Assembly: GCA_019310965.1 (NCBI GenBank)
Contig: JAFDDG010000030.1
Location: 2,390-66,389 of the forward strand
Direction of reading: 5' to 3'
DNA length: 64,000 nt
From: Deltaproteobacteria bacterium
GTDB taxonomy: Bacteria; Myxococcota_A; UBA9160; SMWR01
Of the stretch, positions 108 to 10,770 are shown one piece after another. The notes under the pieces were generated by a model. The model did no database searches. It saw only the letters and a list, made by a program, of their open reading frames with translations, and was not told where the DNA came from. The position numbers were made by a program, and so were the translations under genes. The first letter of the stretch is position 1. Every line of letters begins with the position of its first letter.

Positions 108-429
108 GTCTCACCCCTCCTGGGCATTTTTTACGGAACGGCCGAGAGCCCGTTCCTCCCATCGGATCGGAAGGTTAGCGGAGCCTTTGCACCCCACCAC
201 AAGGCCGCAATCGCGTTGCACCCCCCGGGTGCCACGGGTACGCTTTTTGCGCCCGACAGCGGGATGAAGCCCTTGCGCTCCTGTTTCGTCGGACACGGCC
301 GGGATCTTGATTCCCGACAAAGGAATGAGAGACGGGGGCCGATCGGTCGATAGGCCCTGCGGTGGCGTGCGATCCGTTGCGCCGCTCGGGAACCGCGGGC
401 GCCGATGAGGGGTCCAGCCACACGGGGAG

Positions 430-1620
430 TTGTCGCAGCCGATGAGCCAGACGCTGACGCTCAAGCGCCGCGCGCGCCGAGGTCGCTCACCGGGCGTCCG
501 GCTGTCGCACGCCTTCGTGCCGGCCGCAGCCGGAGCCGGCGCGGCCGCAGCGGCGGATTTCCCCGGACTTTCGGAACACGCCGAGGGCGGCTCGCGCCGC
601 AGCTGGACGTCCGGCCTCCTCGCGCTCTTCCTGCACGGCGGCCTGCTGGGCCTGCTCTTCCTCTTCGCCGCGATGGCCCCCGAGGTGGTGAAGGAAATCC
701 TCGAGGTGCAACTGATCAGGGACCACGAGCCCGAGCCGGAAGCGCCCGCCCCGGCACCGATGGCCCTGGCCGAGCGGCGCCTGCCGAACTTTGCACCGCA
801 GGTGCAGACGGTGCAGCCACAGATCATCAACCCCCGCGTCATCGCCGATGCCGCGCCCGCAATCGACGCGGCGACCCTCGACATGGACGCGGTGGCCTCC
901 GTGGTGGCGCCGACCCGGCTCAGCACCAGCTCGGCGCCGGTGGTCGAGCGCGTCTCGGCGGTGCACTCGCCGATCGTGGCGCGGGCCTCGAAGGTCGACA
1001 TAACGGGAGTGGGCGGACCGGCCGTGCGCGGTCCGGTGAAGATCGATGCGCCGGTGGGTCCCTCCGTGGGCCCGCGCAAGATCGACGTCGCGACCTCGGG
1101 CCAGAGCTTCGGCACCGGCAAGCTCGAGATCGGTGGCCAGGGCTCTTCCGTGGCCGAGGGTCGCATCACCGGGCGCGACGTGGTGGGCACGCCCACCGGC
1201 ACGCCGCTCGTCAGCATCAGCACCGCCGTCGGCGATGGGCTGCTCGGCGGGGCCGGCGGCACCGGCAGCGGGCGCGGCCCGCTGGTCGCAACGTCCAGCA
1301 AGGCGTGTCTCGCCACACCGGCGGTGCAACGCTACATGGATTCGATCCAGCGCAAGACCCTCGACCGCTGGATCCTGCCGCCCGGCGTCGCCCCCGGCCA
1401 CGACGTGACGCTGCGCTTCCAGATCGATCCCGCCGGCTCGGCCATCTCGGTCTCGATGGTGAAGGCCTCCGACAACGCCCTCGGCGCCAGCTGCGTGGAT
1501 GCGCTGCGCGCCGCCGCCCCCTTCCCGCCCATGCCCGACGACGCGCGCTGCCTTGCGCGGCTCCCGATCATCGCAACGTTTACCAATCCTTCGGCTGCCG
1601 ACGGTCCTGTTGCGAACTGA
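430..1620 (+). CDS. tonB: TonB-family energy transducer (single N-terminal TM, long Pro/Ala/Val linker, TonB C-terminal domain)
   Basis: ORF 430..1620. TM segment is WTSGLLALFLHGGLLGLLFLFAAM. The C-terminus YMDSIQRKTLDRWILPPGVAPGHDVTLRFQIDPAGSAISVSMV...AAPFPPMP looks like a TonB_C fold. The start could be ATG 442. Confidence 0.7.
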   Translation: MSQPMSQTLTLKRRARRGRSPGVRLSHAFVPAAAGAGAAAAADFPGLSEHAEGGSRRSWTSGLLALFLHGGLLGLLFLFAAMAPEVVKEILEVQLIRDHEPEPEAPAPAPMALAERRLPNFAPQVQTVQPQIINPRVIADAAPAIDAATLDMDAVASVVAPTRLSTSSAPVVERVSAVHSPIVARASKVDITGVGGPAVRGPVKIDAPVGPSVGPRKIDVATSGQSFGTGKLEIGGQGSSVAEGRITGRDVVGTPTGTPLVSISTAVGDGLLGGAGGTGSGRGPLVATSSKACLATPAVQRYMDSIQRKTLDRWILPPGVAPGHDVTLRFQIDPAGSAISVSMVKASDNALGASCVDALRAAAPFPPMPDDARCLARLPIIATFTNPSAADGPVAN

Positions 1621-4600
1621 ATTCCTTTTGACCGTTGCTCTGCTCGTGAACATCAGCAGTGGCGCCAGCGCTGAAAAGTGCCGGACGGCAATCGAGCTGC
1701 GCTACGACGAGTTCGAGAACCTGGCCGAGAAGCACGTCGATTCGAACAAGGACTGCCAATTCGACCAGGTGGTCTACTACAGCGACGGCAAGGCCACGCA
1801 CGCCGAGATCGACAGCAACTTCGACGGCCGCATCGACACCTGGACCTTCTTCGAGGCCGACGGCAAGACCGTCGGCCGCCAGGAGTTCGATATCAGCGGC
1901 GACGGCAAGAAGGACCGCTGGATCGCGCACCGCGCGGGCAAGCCGGCCTCCCAGCTCGACGACAAGGACGCCGACGGCAAGGCCGACTCCACGCTGTACT
2001 ACAAGGACGGCGTGCCCCACCACATGGAGGAGGACACGGACCTCGACGGCCAGACCGACCGCTGGGTCGATTACCGCGGCGGCGAAGTGGCCGTGATCGA
2101 GGACGACACCAATGCCGACGGCAAGGCCGATGTGAGGGCCGAGTTCGACCCCTCCGGTGCCAAGATTCTCGAGCGCCAGGACACCACGCACGACGGCAAT
2201 TTCGACATCGCCATCCACTACCGCGAAGGCCAGAAAGTGCGCCTCGAGGAGGACACGAAGGGCAAGGGGCGGCCGGATGTGGTGACCCATTTCGACGGCG
2301 AGCAGATCGCCCGCAAGGAGGCCGACACCACCGGCGACGGCCACTTCGATTCGATCGCCTACTTCGAGAAGGGCATCGAGCGCCGCCAGACCCGGGACGA
2401 GGACGGCGACGGCAAGCTCGAGCTGGTGATCTATCTCGACAAGAGTGGCGCGAAGGAGCGAGAGGAAATCGATTCCAAGCAGGACGGCCAGCCCGACCTG
2501 GTTCGTTTCTTCTCACGGGGCCGCCGGGTGCGCGAGGAGGAAGACCAGAACGGCGACCGCAAGGCCGACGTCATCACCACGTACGACGACAAGCTGCCGC
2601 TTCTGCGCGAGGCCGACACGAACCTCGACGGCCGCAAGGACACCACGATCCAGTACCAGGACGGCAAGAAGCTGCGGCAGCAGGAAGACCGCAACGGCGA
2701 CAGCAAGCCCGACGCCAAATACGAGTTCGACGCCGCCGAACAGCTCGTCTTCGAAGAGCTCGACGAGAATTACGACGGATACTTCGAGGTCATCAACAAA
2801 TACGCGGATGGCAAGCTGGCGCGGCGCACGCTGGCTTCGCGCAAGACAGAGCGAGCGGAGCGCAACGAGTTCTTCGAGAACGGCAAGCTCGCCCGGGTGG
2901 AGATCGACGAGAGCGGCGACGGCAAGCCCGACCTCTGGAACTTCCACGCGCCGGACGGTGCGCTGATTCGCCAGGACCAGGATTCCAGCGGCGACGGCAA
3001 GGTCGACACCTGGCTCGAGCTCGACCCCGAGACGGGCAAGGAACGCACGGTGCGCCGGGACCGCAACGGCGACGGCAAGCCCGACCAGTGGCGCACCAAC
3101 AGCTCGACCGGCACGACCCTCAAGCTCGAGGAGGATCGCAACGGCGACGAGAAGCCCGACCGCGTGGTCTTCTTCGAGGCGGGCCTGCCGAAGCGCTTCG
3201 AAGAGGACAGCAACGGAGATGGCCGCCCAGATGTGCGCGGCGAGCTCGACGCGGCGGGCGAGACGCTGCGCGAGGCCCGAGACACCACCGGAGACGGTCA
3301 GTACGACGTCCGTGTCGCCTACACCGGCGGCCAGAGGACCCGGGAAGAGCGCGACACCCGGGGCGACGGCCAGTACGACGTGATCACGGACTACGCCGGC
3401 GGCGCGCCCTCGCGTCAGCAGCAGGACACCACCGGCGATGGCCAGCTCGACTCGATCCTGCAGTTCGAGAAGGGTCGCCAGAGCGTGCAGACGCGGGACA
3501 CGAACGCCAACGGCAAGCCGGACGTGGTACTGCGCTTCGACGCGCAGGAGCGGCCGGCTCGGGAGGAGATCGACCAGAACGACGATCAAAAGCCCGACCT
3601 GGTGAAGCTCTACGTAGAGGGGAAGCTCGTGCGCGAGGAGCGCGACGAGGACGGTGACGGCCGCTTCGAGCGCGTGACCGCCTACGACGGCGCCGAGGTC
3701 TCCCGCTCGGAGGCCGACATGAACGGCGACGGCACCGCGGACGTGGTCGCCTTCTACGCGGAGGGCCGAAAGCAGCGCCAGGAGGAGGACCGCAACTTCG
3801 ACGGGCGACCCGACGTGATCACGCTCTTCGACGATCAGGAGCGCGCGGTGCAGATCGACGAGGACGACGACCTGGACGGAAGGCTGGAGACCGTCACCAC
3901 CTTCGAAGGGGGCGTGAAGGTCCGCACCGACAAGGACCGCAACGGCGACGGCAAGTCCGACCTGACCGCCTGGTACGAAGGCGACCGCATCGTCCGGCAG
4001 GAAGAAGACACGGATTTCGATGGCGTGGTCGACCGGCGCAGCAGCGGCGGCGCCAAGGGCACGACGCTGCAGGAGGCCGACACCGACGGCAACGGCCGAA
4101 CGGATGTGTGGATCGTGGCCGACGCGGAGGGCAACGTGCTCGAGCGCCGTGAAGACCGCAGCGGAAACGGCGAAGCCGACTTCAAGGCCTGGTTCAAGGA
4201 TGGCAAGCTCGAGCGCGTCGAGCTCGATGCCACCGGCGACGGCTGCTTCGAGACGAAGGAGTGGTACACGAAGGCCGAGACCCTGCGAGCCAAGTACGAA
4301 GACACGACCGGCAACTGCAAGACCGACCTCTGGTCCTACGTCGCGGACGGCGCCGTGGTGCGCCAGGGACAGGACACCAGCGGCAACGGTCGGCCGGACA
4401 TCCTGATTCACTACACCAAGAACGGGAAGGCGACCGCACAGGAAGTGGCGAGCGGCGGCAAGACCCCGGACAAGAAGTTCCTGCTGGACGCCAGCGGCGC
4501 GGTGAAGGCCCAGTGCACCCTCGACGAGGCCGGCAAGAAGCTCAACACTCGCGCCAACGTCGATGCCAGCGGCACGGTGCTCGAGATGTTGACCGACACC

Positions 4601-4882
4601 ACCGGAAACGGCGTCGGCGACCAGCGCATCGTTTACGAAGGCGGCGTCGCCACGCGCCTGGATGTCGACACCAACGGCGACCGCAAGCCGGATGCCGCCA
4701 TCAGCTACGACGCTGGCGGCAACGCGACCCATCAGGACGAGGATGCCGACTTCGACGGCGTGATCGATCGGCGCTTCCAGGGCGATCAGCTCGTCGACAT
4801 CCCCGCCGGCACACGCCTCCCCGGAGCGGACTTCGGAGGCCTCGGCTGCGGCAGCTTCCACGGCTTCTGGTGGAAGCGCTAG
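1610..4882 (+). CDS. Secreted, highly acidic tandem-repeat protein with about 38 DxDxDG calcium-loop-like motifs
   Basis: In frame with ORF 1499..4882. TTG at 1610 gives a Sec-type signal, MRTEFLLTVALLVNISSGASA/EK; TTG 1628 is the alternative start. The body repeats E-x-D-x-[ND]-x-D-G-x-x-D followed by an aromatic-x-x-G hairpin about every 24-27 aa. Confidence 0.75.
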   Translation: MRTEFLLTVALLVNISSGASAEKCRTAIELRYDEFENLAEKHVDSNKDCQFDQVVYYSDGKATHAEIDSNFDGRIDTWTFFEADGKTVGRQEFDISGDGKKDRWIAHRAGKPASQLDDKDADGKADSTLYYKDGVPHHMEEDTDLDGQTDRWVDYRGGEVAVIEDDTNADGKADVRAEFDPSGAKILERQDTTHDGNFDIAIHYREGQKVRLEEDTKGKGRPDVVTHFDGEQIARKEADTTGDGHFDSIAYFEKGIERRQTRDEDGDGKLELVIYLDKSGAKEREEIDSKQDGQPDLVRFFSRGRRVREEEDQNGDRKADVITTYDDKLPLLREADTNLDGRKDTTIQYQDGKKLRQQEDRNGDSKPDAKYEFDAAEQLVFEELDENYDGYFEVINKYADGKLARRTLASRKTERAERNEFFENGKLARVEIDESGDGKPDLWNFHAPDGALIRQDQDSSGDGKVDTWLELDPETGKERTVRRDRNGDGKPDQWRTNSSTGTTLKLEEDRNGDEKPDRVVFFEAGLPKRFEEDSNGDGRPDVRGELDAAGETLREARDTTGDGQYDVRVAYTGGQRTREERDTRGDGQYDVITDYAGGAPSRQQQDTTGDGQLDSILQFEKGRQSVQTRDTNANGKPDVVLRFDAQERPAREEIDQNDDQKPDLVKLYVEGKLVREERDEDGDGRFERVTAYDGAEVSRSEADMNGDGTADVVAFYAEGRKQRQEEDRNFDGRPDVITLFDDQERAVQIDEDDDLDGRLETVTTFEGGVKVRTDKDRNGDGKSDLTAWYEGDRIVRQEEDTDFDGVVDRRSSGGAKGTTLQEADTDGNGRTDVWIVADAEGNVLERREDRSGNGEADFKAWFKDGKLERVELDATGDGCFETKEWYTKAETLRAKYEDTTGNCKTDLWSYVADGAVVRQGQDTSGNGRPDILIHYTKNGKATAQEVASGGKTPDKKFLLDASGAVKAQCTLDEAGKKLNTRANVDASGTVLEMLTDTTGNGVGDQRIVYEGGVATRLDVDTNGDRKPDAAISYDAGGNATHQDEDADFDGVIDRRFQGDQLVDIPAGTRLPGADFGGLGCGSFHGFWWKR
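1805..4775 (+). repeat. In-frame degenerate coding repeat array (period about 69-81 nt)
   Basis: Motifs such as EEDRNGDGKPD, EADTTGDGHFD and DKDRNGDGKSD recur. I counted about 38 units by eye. Strings like ggcgacggcaagcccgac recur at the nucleotide level. Confidence 0.8.
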
Positions 4883-4884
4883 CT

Positions 4885-5703
4885 CTGGAGGTTCGCGGCT
4901 TCTGTCTGGGCATCCTGCGCAACGGCGGCCTCGCCCACAAGCTGGCGCCGCCGCCGGGCGACCTGAGAGACGACGCCCGGGGCCCTGCCCTGCGCATCCG
5001 GCGCCCGAGGCGCGACGCCGAGCTCGCCTTTGCTCCGCACGCGCCGCGACTGCCGCGGCCCTCTCGACTCGACGATGCCGACGCCCGTGCCGCATGCCTC
5101 GCGCGCTTCGCGCACCACGAGCTGATGGCGGTGGAGCTCTTCGCCTGGGCGCTGCTGCGCTATCCGGCGTTGCCGGGCGCGCTGCGTCTCGGCCTGCTGG
5201 CGGCTCTCGCCGACGAGCAACGCCACTGCCACCTCTACCTCGAGCGACTCGCGGCCCATGGCTCGACGCTCGGCGAGCACCCGCTCTCGGACTATTTCTG
5301 GCGACACGAGCCGGCTCTGGCCGCATCTCACCAGGGCCCCCGCGCCTTTCTGTGCGCCATGGGGCTCACCCTCGAGCAGGCGAACCTCGACTTCTCGCTC
5401 GTCTACGCCGAGGGCTTTCGCGCGGCCGGCGACGAGGCCAGCGCGCAAGCCTGCGAGCTCGTGCAGCGGGACGAGATCCGCCACGTGCGCCTGGCCGCCG
5501 AGTGGCTGCCGCAGCTCGGCGGCCCCAAGGACCCGATCGCCGCCTACGAAGCTGCGGTGCCCTTCCCTCTGGAAGCCGCCCGGGCCAAGGGGCGCCGCTT
5601 CGACGCCGCCGCGCGGCGCGACGCCGGGCTCGCGCCGGAGTTCGTCGCCTACGTGCGCACGGCGCGCTCGAATGCGGAACGCAACCCGCGCTCCCGTGCC
5701 TGA
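4885..5703 (+). CDS. DUF455-like ferritin-fold (putative di-iron) protein
   Basis: This is the 3' part of ORF 4261..5703, after the upstream stop at 4882. Paired metal-ligand-like motifs are present: HHELMAVELFAW, DEQRHCHLYLERL, LEQANLDF and QRDEIRHVRL. The start is uncertain; CTG 4885 is the first in-frame codon after the stop. Confidence 0.5.
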   Translation: MEVRGFCLGILRNGGLAHKLAPPPGDLRDDARGPALRIRRPRRDAELAFAPHAPRLPRPSRLDDADARAACLARFAHHELMAVELFAWALLRYPALPGALRLGLLAALADEQRHCHLYLERLAAHGSTLGEHPLSDYFWRHEPALAASHQGPRAFLCAMGLTLEQANLDFSLVYAEGFRAAGDEASAQACELVQRDEIRHVRLAAEWLPQLGGPKDPIAAYEAAVPFPLEAARAKGRRFDAAARRDAGLAPEFVAYVRTARSNAERNPRSRA

Positions 5704-6894: not shown

Positions 6895-7209
6895 GTGTCG
6901 GACAAAACCACCTTTGAAATCGAAGTCTCCATTGGTGAACTGTGCCTCAGCGAGCTCGAGGCGCGCGCTCGCGAAGCGAACGGGGGCCAGCCGCTCCCGC
7001 TGAAAGATTGGGTCGCCCTCGCCGAGGCGTGGCACATTGCCGCCGCGCTGCGCGCGAGCCGCGGCAACCGCTCGGCGACCGCCCGCGCACTCGGCATCGG
7101 CCGGCGCACGCTCTACGCAAAGATGGAGAAGCTCCGCCTGATTCCCGTCTGGGCCGTCCTCGCCCGCAACAACGGCCGCGCACACGACCCCGAGCAAGCG
7201 TCCGCCTGA
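6895..7209 (+). CDS. Small Fis-type helix-turn-helix DNA-binding protein
   Basis: This is the tail of ORF 5818..7209. GTG 6895 is the proposed start, with TTG 6877 as an alternative. The C-terminus [30 protein letters not shown] is a Fis/NtrC-type HTH. Confidence 0.6.
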   Translation: MSDKTTFEIEVSIGELCLSELEARAREANGGQPLPLKDWVALAEAWHIAAALRASRGNRSATARALGIGRRTLYAKMEKLRLIPVWAVLARNNGRAHDPEQASA

Positions 7210-7258
7210 AACGGCCCACCCGCGCACGCAGCCCCTTCGGCCGCTGCCTCGCGCTTGA

Positions 7259-9253
<1,995 letters not shown>

Positions 9254-9258
9254 TCGAT

Positions 9259-9292
9259 GGGGTGGGGGCGCCCTGCGGGGCGCCTCCACCCT
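9259..9292 (+). terminator. Strong GC hairpin after glnK (terminator or attenuator-like, no U tract)
   Basis: ggtgggggcgccc-tgcg-gggcgcctccacc forms a 13-bp stem with one G-U pair and a 4-nt loop. It is followed by cttcc rather than a T run. Confidence 0.45.
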
Positions 9293-9453
9293 TCCACGCT
9301 CCACTTCCCGGCCGGCCTCCCGCCGGCATCCGCTGGCCGTTCGCCACCACCCGCGGCCATGGGCGGCCCATTCGCCTCGCCTGGGCGCCCCGGGCAGCCG
9401 CACGCCGGCACATCCCTTGCTCTCCTGCAGCAGCTCACAGCAGGAGGCTCGGC

Positions 9454-10770
9454 ATGGCAGCCATTCGATCGGTTCTGTGGATCGGCAAGGCACGACACTT
9501 CGCGGCAGACATCGTCGCCGATGCGCCGAGTCTCGATGTCGTCTGGGAGCGCGATGCTGCCGAGGCAGCGCGCAGCAGCGGCGACGGCTTCCACGCCGTC
9601 GTCCTCGAAGCCGAGGACGCCGACCAGGCACTGGCAGCGTTGGCCAGCCTGGTCGCGAACCCGGGAGCACCGGTGCTGGTGCGCATTGCACCCCGTCAGG
9701 CCGAGCGCGCATCCGAGCTGTTGGAGGCCGGCGCGGCCGACGTGGCGTTGCGTGGGGGACCGAACGAGGAGAGCGACCTGCTCGCGCGCATCGAGCGCCT
9801 GGCGCGGCCCGGCCGGCGCAGCCCCGATCCTCGTATCATCGGAGGCGCGCCGGCCATGCGCCGGGTGCTCGGCCTGGTCGCCGTATCCGCGCGCTCGCGC
9901 ACCACGGTGCTGCTCTCCGGCGAAACGGGAACCGGCAAGGAGGTGGTGGCCCGCGCCATCCACGCCGCCAGCCCGCGGCGCGACGCGGCGTTCATCGCCG
10001 TCAACTGCGCCGCCTTTCCCGACACACTGCTCGAGAGCGAGCTCTTCGGCTACCAGCGCGGCGCGTTCACCGGGGCAGACCGCAACCAGCCGGGTCTCTT
10101 CGAAGCCGCCCACGGCGGCACGCTCTTTCTCGACGAGATCGGAGAGACCTCGGCTCCCTTCCAGGCCAAGCTGCTGCGCGTGCTCCAGGAGCGCGAGGTG
10201 CGTCGCATCGGCGCTGCGCGCAACCAACACGTGGATGTGCGGGTCGTGGCCGCCAGCAATCGGGAGCTGAGACGCGAGGCCAACGAGCAGCGCTTTCGCA
10301 TCGATCTCTACTATCGCCTGGCCGTCTTCCCGATCACGCTGCCTCCGCTGCGGGAACGCCCGGGAGACATCCTGGCCCTGGCGCACCACTTTCTCGCCCG
10401 GCACGGCCCCGACGAGGGACACCGCGAGGCGGCGCTCACGCCAGCAGCCGAACAGCTGCTGCAGGCCCACCGCTGGCCGGGCAATGTGCGCGAGCTCGAG
10501 AACGAAGTGCTGCGCGCGTTGGCCATGACCGAGCCGGGGGAGGCCCTCGCACCGGAGCATTTCTCCGAACGCCTCGGCGCGATTCTCGAGCCCATCGAGA
10601 GTCAAGTCGCGCCGGGCGACACGCTGCGCGAGACCCTCGGCCGCATCGAAGGCTTCCTGATCCGCAAGAACCTCGCGGCGCACGATGGCCAGCGCAGCGC
10701 CACCGCCCGCGCGCTCGGCATCACCCGCGAGGGCCTCTACAAGAAGATGAAGCGGTTCGGGATCGAGTGA
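9454..10770 (+). CDS. Sigma-54-dependent transcriptional activator (NtrC family) with a degenerate receiver-like N-terminus
   Basis: ATG 9454 with a caggagg RBS, in ORF 8851..10770. Walker A is GETGTGKE, and the GAFTGA motif (RGAFTGADR) and [11 protein letters not shown] are present. The C-terminal Fis HTH is [23 protein letters not shown]. Confidence 0.88.

Follow-up and report, generated by a model that had tools for sequence, protein, structure and literature searches.

The window analysed here is a 64,000-nucleotide stretch of contig JAFDDG010000030.1 from a Deltaproteobacteria bacterium, with a base composition of about 70% G+C, and our subject is a gene near its left end that encodes a giant, acidic protein built almost entirely from one short repeat. 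This gene follows directly upon a gene of the TonB/TolA family, which in turn faces, across a divergent intergenic region, the beginning of a gene of the ExbB/TolQ family. Our main finding is that the repeat protein belongs, together with ExbB, ExbD and the TonB-like protein, to a four-gene module that is kept across its relatives, and that the length of the protein and the individual identity of its repeats are kept as well. The features of the locus are collected in Table 1.

Table 1. Features of the repeat-protein locus, in positions of the window (a dot marks a feature without strand)
Feature	Position	Strand	Description
Repeat-protein open reading frame	1610-4882	+	TTG 1610, stop 4880-4882, 1,090 residues
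Sec signal peptide	1610-1672	+	MRTEFLLTVALLVNISSGASA; AxA signal peptides conserved in orthologues
N-terminal edge strand of mature protein	1679-1717	+	C-x-x-x-[IV]-E-L-x-Y-D-E-x-E, kept across orthologues
Hairpin repeat array (predicted hairpins)	1739-4795	+	about 42 units (38 detectable) of 24-26 residues; from hidden Markov model, consensus, AlphaFold2 and shuffles
C-terminal four-Cys region	4244-4852	+	C879, C903, C969, C1080, at least 90% conserved (46 full-length orthologues)
C-terminal tail motif	4847-4879	+	C-G-x-F-x-x-F-W-x-[KR]-R, at the very end of the protein
ExbB/TolQ-family gene, 5' end	107-1	-	cut off by the left end of the window; MDSQQLLDLLWIGRLTVIPLAIGSVLVLAIVLERV matches the gene of locus L001
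exbB/TonB-like intergenic region, divergent	108-429	.	presumed promoter region, defined by position
TonB/TolA-family gene	430-1620	+	396 residues from TTG 430; ATG 442 is the likelier start

Reading frame and gene module

The repeat gene has G+C contents of 0.68, 0.41 and 0.90 at the three codon positions, the pattern that one would look for in a real gene of this genome. A long open reading frame (ORF) of 937 residues runs antisense to it (2513-5326, minus strand), with a third-position G+C content (GC3) of 0.67 and a first-position content (GC1) of 0.89, the mirror image of the true frame. The forward frame is taken to be the coding one because of its GC3 of 0.90, as against 0.67 in the antisense ORF, and the latter was rejected as a gene, its mirrored codon-position composition marking it as a high-GC artefact. 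The start codon of the repeat protein is likely the TTG at 1610, which overlaps the stop codon of the TonB-like gene (1618-1620) by 11 nt. The same overlap of -11 recurs in seven closer orthologous loci (L003, L006, L010, L014, L019, L027 and L029), with TTG or GTG as the start codon and a basic or small second residue (Arg or Ala). An alternative start, the TTG at 1628, was set aside, as it would give a signal peptide without an n-region.

The TonB-like protein consists of a cytoplasmic N-terminus, one transmembrane helix, a long linker and a C-terminal domain of the TonB type, and alignments of its orthologues begin at residue 5. It is recognised by Pfam TonB_2 (33 bits, cut-off 22) and by NCBIfam tonB_Cterm (31.8 bits, cut-off 27.1), while a match to tolA_full of 37 bits, below the cut-off of that model, indicates a weak likeness to TolA; in structural terms, the C-terminal domain lies at about equal distance from solved TonB and TolA structures. 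On the other side of the divergent region, the translation of positions 1-107 on the minus strand matches the N-terminus of a gene that Pfam annotates as MotA_ExbB in the orthologous locus L001. A scan for promoters and terminators was uninformative, with no sigma-70-like consensus in 108-429.

How general is this arrangement? A scan of 185,579 species-representative genomes gave 175 relatives of the repeat protein, of which the best 80, representing 79 distinct loci, were kept. About 70 of these 79 hold full-length or contig-truncated orthologues at 34-63% identity, almost all of them in metagenome-assembled genomes labelled Myxococcota, Deltaproteobacteria or Myxococcales, and there are no cultured strains among the 79 listed loci. 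In a tblastn survey, the TonB-like gene was found directly upstream of the repeat gene, and on the same strand, in 62 of the 62 loci whose upstream DNA extends to 1.3 kb or more. Divergent exbB and exbD genes are present in 47 of the 54 loci with at least 3 kb of upstream DNA, and six of the other seven make up a subclade in which exbB lies just downstream and an extra, smaller repeat protein is encoded. In most loci, the repeat gene starts within -17 to +37 nt of the stop codon of the TonB-like gene, and it often overlaps it; the recurrence of overlaps of -11, -14 and -4 nt therefore argues for co-transcription and, probably, for coupled translation of the two genes. In two metagenomic orthologues (locus L001 and the contig of protein P0002), the entire module can be read from Pfam annotations, with exbB followed by exbD running in one direction from the divergent region and the TonB-like gene followed by the repeat gene running in the other. 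Beyond these four genes, no other neighbour is broadly conserved.

The initial annotation of this DNA, made from the letters of the window, had proposed that the repeat protein is coupled to TonB and had named non-conserved TonB adjacency as the observation that would speak against its proposal. Of all its claims, this one is the most strongly borne out: loss of adjacency was looked for and fails decisively as an objection, every testable Myxococcota locus being intact in this respect, and the coupling recurs in Desulfobacterota. There, half-size relatives of about 550-630 residues (from Desulfobacterales, Syntrophobacteraceae and Thermodesulfobacteriota) head operons of the order repeat-exbB-exbD-tonB, which in L071, L076, L080 and L081 are followed by a TonB-dependent transporter. 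What is more, in one Acidiferrales locus, tonB-exbB-exbD lies downstream of the repeat gene.

Individual loci show further features. In the subclade with a downstream exbB (L057:4513-14113; also L059, L062, L069, L070 and L078), the TonB-like gene is followed first by the gene for a repeat protein of 1,149 residues and then by that for a second protein of 451 residues, which combines about 8 units of this repeat with a lipoprotein-like signal, a glycine-zipper segment and an acidic region; exbB is on the opposite strand, beside ORFs that by eye appear vWA-like and OmpA-like. Beyond exbD, L022 (802-3351), about 30 other loci and the P0002 contig have a large ABC_transp_aux gene (GldG-like, 'ABC-type uncharacterized transport system'), which may reflect lineage synteny or a looser functional link. 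In L071, and in no other locus, a membrane-anchored Peptidase_MA_2 (HExxH) gene (4442-5470) lies directly 5' of the half-size repeat gene. Finally, there are two irregular gene products. P0195, a single NCBI-sourced sequence of 398 residues, reads as the C-terminal repeats of a half-size repeat protein joined in frame to TonB (transmembrane helix plus TonB_C). Whether the fusion is genuine or due to a deletion or assembly artefact, its topology would be odd, in that periplasmic repeats precede a transmembrane helix that leads from the cytoplasm to the periplasm, and we did not use it as evidence. P0004 of L002 (965 residues) is a frame-shifted chimera that runs from the TonB-like C-terminus into the repeat gene, with real and out-of-frame stretches alternating; the frameshifts probably come from assembly or sequencing errors, and the order of TonB and then repeat is still visible in it.

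Repeat array, export signal and predicted structure

A hidden Markov model (HMM) seeded from the strict repeats detects 38 units with a start-to-start spacing of 24-26 residues, and the gaps of 48, 49 and 74 residues between them hold degenerate units, bringing the total to about 42. The anatomy and the count of about 38 repeats given in the initial annotation are thereby upheld. The autocorrelation of Asp has its maxima at lags of 24, 49 and 73 residues, and the strict motif D.[DN].DG..[DE] occurs 16 times, whereas 2,000 shuffles that preserve composition gave it 0.09 times on average and never more than twice. The consensus of the repeat, drawn from 372 units of the window protein and nine orthologues, has 24 residues and reads E-E-D-T-[ND]-G-D-G-[KR]-[P/hydrophobic]-D-h-h-h-x-[FY]-[DE]-x-G-x-x-h-R-x, with conservation of 99% at D3, 73% at [ND]5, 87% at D7, 88% at G8 and 99% at [DE]11; the ligand positions of the loop are given as conserved at levels of at least 83-99%. 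In other words, each unit is a loop of the form D-x-[DN]-x-D-G-x-x-D followed by [FY]-[DE]-x-G. The Ca2+-type core D-x-[DN]-x-D-G, as it had first been described, is indeed there, albeit as part of a longer form, D-x-D-x-D-G-x-x-D, which is typical of integrin/FG-GAP hairpin loops. At the level of DNA, Tandem Repeats Finder detects no tandem repeat, from which it follows that the array is old and diverged and not an artefact of assembly.

The repeats are not interchangeable. Orthologues align collinearly, repeat for repeat, and repeats at the same position in different orthologues are 40-42% identical where the whole proteins are 35-37% identical, while different repeats inside the window protein are 28% identical to each other. 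At positions outside the motif, the corresponding values are 29-32% between orthologous repeats and 16% between repeats within the protein. The N-terminal strand motif and the C-terminal tail motif stand a median of 1,054 residues apart, with a tight clustering at 1,053-1,062, and conservation is roughly even over the length of the protein in the 46 full-length orthologues. A fixed number of individually conserved repeats points to a defined structure with many specific surfaces and, for the same reason, speaks against reading the protein as a generic polyanion or as an adhesin stalk that varies.

The protein begins with the putative signal peptide of Table 1, followed after the cleavage site by EKC. 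The site is of the AxA type and resembles that of a Sec signal, and the orthologues carry unmistakable Sec signals with sites of the same type, in keeping with the Sec signal (ASA/EK) that had been read from the window. The mature protein has a mass of 119.7 kDa and an isoelectric point of 4.55. Asp makes up 14.2% of the residues of the gene product, which has 250 acidic as against 159 basic ones; by our own arithmetic, the acidic excess of 91 comes close to the charge of 40 bound divalent ions. There are six Cys residues in the protein, at positions 24, 49, 879, 903, 969 and 1080. The first of them lies in the conserved edge-strand motif, which includes a predicted strand at residues 28-32, and it covaries with C49 across loci, 27 loci having both residues, 36 neither and a single locus just one of the two. 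The remaining four, from their pattern in the alignment, likely form two further disulfides. Taken together, Cys covariation and conservation therefore argue for disulfides and hence for a location outside the cytoplasm. As for the tail motif, it is found only in the giant form of Myxococcota and is absent from the half-size relatives of Desulfobacterota; it was considered as a MYXO-CTERM-type sorting signal and rejected, as it comes without a hydrophobic transmembrane segment. In the window protein, we found no lipobox, beta-barrel, autotransporter, type IX secretion system (T9SS) or MYXO-CTERM-like sorting signal.

AlphaFold2, given the window protein and three orthologues, produced a model with a mean predicted local distance difference test score (pLDDT) of 81 and a predicted template modelling score (pTM) of 0.35, in which DSSP assigns 84 strands and essentially nothing else. 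The modelled unit has a strand of 6 residues, a turn of 2 residues at [FY]-[DE]-x-G, a strand of 7 residues and the DxDxDGxxD loop of 9 residues (for example, strand 61-67, loop D68-D76 and strand 77-81). For the half-size relative P0123, a model made from 60 sequences reached a pLDDT of 92 and a pTM of 0.69 with an architecture matching that of the window protein. What the models predict is a continuous antiparallel beta-meander of hairpins, neither a solenoid nor a propeller, and the early suggestion of a beta-solenoid spacer has to give way to this flat meander of 84 strands. From such a topology it would follow, by our reasoning, that the cation loops all lie on one edge of the sheet and the tight turns on the other.

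In a Foldseek search of both models against the PDB, Rhs effectors, teneurin YD shells and TcB/TcC cocoons come out on top, with E-values down to 1.8e-21. At the same time, the template modelling (TM) scores of these matches are 0.05-0.16, with root-mean-square deviations of about 50 A, and do not exceed 0.11 for the full-length model. The likeness is therefore local, that of a strip of hairpins, with no global match. Engineered single-layer OspA sheets give the best target-normalised TM-scores (0.23-0.35), propellers appear only as low-probability matches, and no solved structure found in these searches shares the overall form of either model. One cation site per hairpin, lined up along a single edge of a ribbon, would be an arrangement without counterpart among the solved structures searched.

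Kinship of the repeat with known families

Pfam assigns the full protein to no family: it gives FG-GAP_3 (17.8 bits, cut-off 26.9) and FG-GAP (10 bits, cut-off 22.1) below threshold, along with noise, and no match to MORN, RHS, EF-hand or DUF6802. A sequence search of the PDB with the window protein likewise gave nothing useful, only ThreeFoil at an E-value of 0.16. The NCBIfam model NF050087 ('Lsa25.6 family adhesin') has matches in seven stretches of the protein (E-value 5.3e-38, 130.6 bits, below its equivalog cut-off of 150 bits), and it matches all relatives tested, at 25-88 bits. The repeat is therefore not without a family, and the initial view that its period and hairpin match none of the known calcium-loop families holds for Pfam and has to be revised for NCBIfam, if below the cut-off. 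As 130.6 bits fall short of 150, it is the repeat that the two have in common, and the window protein is no equivalog of Lsa25.6.

Lsa25.6 is the protein LIC13059 of Leptospira interrogans, of about 25 kDa (the model has a length of 196), as against the 120 kDa and about 42 repeats of the window protein. The two have the same repeat unit, both are exported and both are without a Pfam domain (PMC9694704, Table 1). Lsa25.6 is reported to be surface-exposed (PMC7662565, PMC9694704) and is described as a host-matrix adhesin from in vitro binding: laminin, plasminogen and fibrinogen are bound by the refolded recombinant protein (PMC7662565, PMC8657130), as seen in assays of the enzyme-linked immunosorbent (ELISA) type (PMC7662565). 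No link of it to TonB has been reported. A search by way of a low-GC relative returned many small repeat proteins and no Leptospira entry.

The MORN/YwqK flavour that the initial annotation perceived in the repeat is found again in labels and alignments. In particular, the half-size relatives carry the JGI (Joint Genome Institute) label 'antitoxin component YwqK' (COG2849), P0123 and the SET7/9 MORN domain can be aligned in register at an E-value of 0.004, and P0005 has a weak match to MORN_2 (15.4 bits, cut-off 29.6). The window repeat shares with MORN and MORN_2 (PF02493, PF07661) a period of 23-24 residues and a hairpin turn of the form aromatic-x-x-Gly, and the AlphaFold2 models have the predicted hairpin repeat of 22-24 residues in an elongated antiparallel sheet that characterises MORN. 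The window protein itself, however, matches neither HMM at an E-value of 1 or below, and the link between hairpins differs, being a short Gly-rich turn in MORN and a cation loop of 9 residues, DxDxDGxxD, in the window protein. Half-size Desulfobacterota relatives often match DUF6802 (PF20615) and pass its threshold, at 51.9 bits against 27, whereas the window protein gives no match to it at an E-value of 1 or below.

The loop, for its part, has a different affinity. The form D-x-[DN]-x-D-G-x-x-D is that of the beta-hairpin Ca2+ sites of integrin and FG-GAP proteins, and the loop consensus in the integrin/FG-GAP/VCBS families (PF01839, PF13517), where it lies between two beta-strands, is identical to that of the window repeat; for this reason, FG-GAP proteins come up by the hundreds as weak matches. 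Yet FG-GAP units are four-stranded propeller blades of about 60 residues, and those of the window protein are predicted two-stranded hairpins of 24 residues in a meander. With phmmer, 1.84 billion cluster representatives gave 3,944 matches at an E-value of 1e-3 or below, mostly FG-GAP-like proteins sharing the loop, and only 82 at 1e-30 or below, nearly all of them orthologue fragments or members of the half-size family. A word-indexed protein search returned only five true orthologues, because FG-GAP proteins filled its candidate list, and the genome scan found more.

Judging from these sequence comparisons, the repeat amounts to a MORN/YwqK-like hairpin with a cation loop of the FG-GAP type in place of the turn between hairpins. 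Databases have for it only the names Lsa25.6-like, YwqK-like or DUF6802, and the labels 'adhesin', 'YwqK antitoxin' and DUF (domain of unknown function) may all be misleading when put on this repeat. The same hairpin-plus-loop repeat is seen in many proteins of 210-290 residues (P0227-P0319; L082:6001-6654), for example in Anaeromyxobacter and Enhygromyxa. Elsewhere in the window, the region 6942-10770 looks like an ordinary nitrogen-regulation cluster, with ORFs that we assigned by eye from their translations to an Amt-type ammonium transporter (to 8894), a PII (GlnB/GlnK)-like protein (ending at 9253) and a sigma-54-dependent response-regulator-like protein (ending at 10770).

A candidate fourth component of a Ton/Tol-like system

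The Ton and Tol systems are the main route by which the energy of the inner membrane reaches the outer membrane in Gram-negative bacteria, and their known parts are ExbB/TolQ, ExbD/TolR and TonB/TolA, together with TolB-Pal or transporters. Any explanation of the repeat protein has to start from its repeat anatomy, export signal and Cys pair, from the hairpin-plus-loop architecture that is predicted for it, and from the four-gene module with its conserved length and per-repeat identity. We give an even chance to the explanation that the protein is a periplasmic, calcium-stiffened ribbon which acts as the dedicated partner of an ExbB-ExbD-TonB/TolA-like module. Namely, the Sec-exported, disulfide-containing and most likely periplasmic protein would form, with its roughly 42 hairpins, one long antiparallel beta-ribbon with a row of about 40 sites for Ca2+, or a similar hard cation, along one of its edges. 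The binding of metal after export would fold and stiffen it; plausibly, the sheet of 84 strands would not fold in the cytoplasm, where Ca2+ is low, before Sec has exported it, as is the case with RTX proteins. Made together with the TonB-like protein by way of overlapping genes, the ribbon would be a dedicated fourth component of a module driven by the proton-motive force, and would serve the TonB-like protein as its periplasmic partner, be it as a fixed-length rigid scaffold, a spacer or a force-transmitting element. It may dock through an exposed edge strand onto the TonB-type C-terminal domain in the way that the N-terminus of TolB or the TonB box does.

The last two steps, edge-strand docking and the role of a spacer or force-bearing element, are guided by the precedents of TolA-TolB and of TonB and the TonB box, and the comparison with Tol-Pal may be taken somewhat further. 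TolB, too, is a large periplasmic all-beta protein encoded right after the TolA/TonB-family gene of a motor cluster, an arrangement that the window would parallel. The N-terminus of TolB docks on TolA by strand augmentation, and the conserved N-terminal strand of the mature repeat protein could dock in a similar way. That said, the two systems differ in several respects. The beta-propeller of TolB has no sequence or fold kinship with the repeat protein; in Tol-Pal, Pal and CpoB follow downstream, whereas the repeat-gene loci that we inspected have no Pal-like gene and their downstream genes are not conserved; and the motor genes exbB-exbD are divergent in the present module, while their counterparts lie upstream in the same operon in Tol-Pal.

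Several points weigh against this explanation. Metal binding, residence in the periplasm as opposed to the surface, contact with the TonB-like protein and the mechanical role are all steps that we infer. Lsa25.6, which alone among the relatives of the repeat has been characterised, is reported to be on the surface, not in the periplasm (PMC7662565, PMC9694704). The gene linkage would also fit a substrate or cargo of the system in place of a component of it. The pTM of 0.35 for the full-length model means that an open ribbon, a superhelix and a closed shell are all compatible with the prediction. Moreover, the Myxococcota module includes neither a TonB-dependent transporter nor a Pal-like gene. 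Finally, a small repeat protein, P0272, is flanked in the one case checked by RHH_3 and unrelated genes and not by TonB/ExbBD, so that the Ton association is a property of the large and medium forms and not of the repeat itself.

A bolder version of the ribbon proposal, which we put forward tentatively and consider improbable as it stands, would make the repeat protein the periplasm-spanning, force-bearing element of an undescribed class of Ton/Tol-like machines. In such a machine, an ExbBD motor and a TonB/TolA-like arm would act on a fixed-length, calcium-stiffened ribbon and not directly on an outer-membrane transporter, the giant form being that of uncultured Myxococcota, while the half-length version would sit on classical TonB-transporter operons in Desulfobacterota.

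Somewhat less probable still, in our view, is that the protein is a surface-displayed or secreted adhesin of the Lsa25.6 type, which would bind external polymers or surfaces and whose passage or display would be powered by the Ton-like module. The NF050087 matches in the window protein and in all relatives tested speak for it, as do the reported surface exposure of Lsa25.6 and its binding of host ligands (PMC7662565, PMC8657130, PMC9694704). The tight linkage to Ton genes is compatible with a role in export. A comparable case is Oar, a TonB-dependent transporter of Myxococcus xanthus that serves the secretion of PopC. However, a match below the equivalog cut-off reflects the shared repeat and not orthology to a protein of 25 kDa, and the Leptospira data come from refolded recombinant protein in ELISA-type assays (PMC7662565). 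Among the surface-sorting signals that we looked for, from a lipobox to MYXO-CTERM, none was found, and the Myxococcota module has no outer-membrane transporter gene. What is more, the number of repeats is usually variable in adhesins, while here both the length and the identity of each repeat are fixed.

That the protein serves in the periplasm to store or buffer, at high capacity, Ca2+ or a different hard cation, such as the lanthanides, with uptake driven by the adjacent Ton system, strikes us as less plausible again than the adhesin. It would draw on the roughly 40 DxDxDGxxD loops, the net charge of -91 and the TonB-dependent transporters in the operons of the Desulfobacterota relatives. 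In addition, a comparison of the half-size family profile with the PDB picks out the EF loops of lanmodulin, a lanthanide-binding protein (6mi5 / 8fns), at an E-value of 0.002, because this family and lanmodulin both have DxDxDGxxD loops about 24 residues apart. This match, however, stays at the level of the motif: the loops of lanmodulin lie between helices and have a Pro at loop position 2 that is absent here, and the helix-loop-helix context of EF-hands and lanmodulin is missing from the window and half-size models, which are predicted to be all-beta. We regard the likeness as probably one of convergence, a coincidence of motif and spacing. A buffer, moreover, needs neither a fixed number of repeats nor an individual identity of repeats at non-ligand positions; in the model, the loops appear as integral connectors of the beta-sheet, which is also their structural role in integrin and FG-GAP proteins; and periplasmic Ca2+ would be expected to follow that of the medium, so that buffering it has no obvious benefit. 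For Myxococcota, the missing transporter gene counts against this possibility as well. In the same vein, the Ca2+-buffer and mineral-binding roles listed in the initial annotation leave per-repeat identity, fixed length and the obligatory linkage to TonB/ExbBD unexplained. Least credible of all, indeed very improbable, is an encapsulation shell of the Rhs/YD type (type VI secretion system (T6SS) Rhs proteins, teneurins, TcB/TcC), in which the strip of hairpins would close into a hollow cocoon with a cargo or toxin: for all the top-ranking Foldseek matches of both models and a similar size of about 1,000 residues of hairpin repeats, only local sheet geometry agrees, there is no Pfam RHS_repeat match, no DPxGL aspartyl-protease motif, C-terminal toxin or N-terminal plug domain, we know of no Rhs shell with a Ca-loop repeat, and the gene context is Ton/Exb and not T6SS or Tc.

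Returning to the ribbon as a partner of the Ton-like module, we asked the literature for DUF6802, for MORN/YwqK in connection with TonB, and for ExbB/ExbD/TonB/Myxococcota in connection with a periplasmic repeat protein. No paper mentioning DUF6802 was found, and a linkage between this repeat and Ton genes is not described in what these searches returned. Each of the three elements, loop, hairpin and Ton module, is known by itself, while a conserved, giant calcium-loop hairpin protein as the fixed fourth gene of a Ton/Tol-like module is new to the literature that we searched. The comparative-genomic signal is, in our opinion, solid and a surprising one for the Ton/Tol field, and it is from comparative genomics and structure prediction that the present claims are made.

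If the explanation is true, this fourth component would be a new part for the Ton/Tol class of machines. The candidate is a very large protein that is strictly inherited along with the module and apparently depends on metal; dozens of species-level genomes carry it, in two architectures that extend across phyla. With it, one could understand how the Ton/Tol-like systems of these lineages span the periplasm or gauge its width, and a widespread repeat that now goes by the names of 'adhesin', 'YwqK antitoxin' or DUF would gain a function that can be put to the test.

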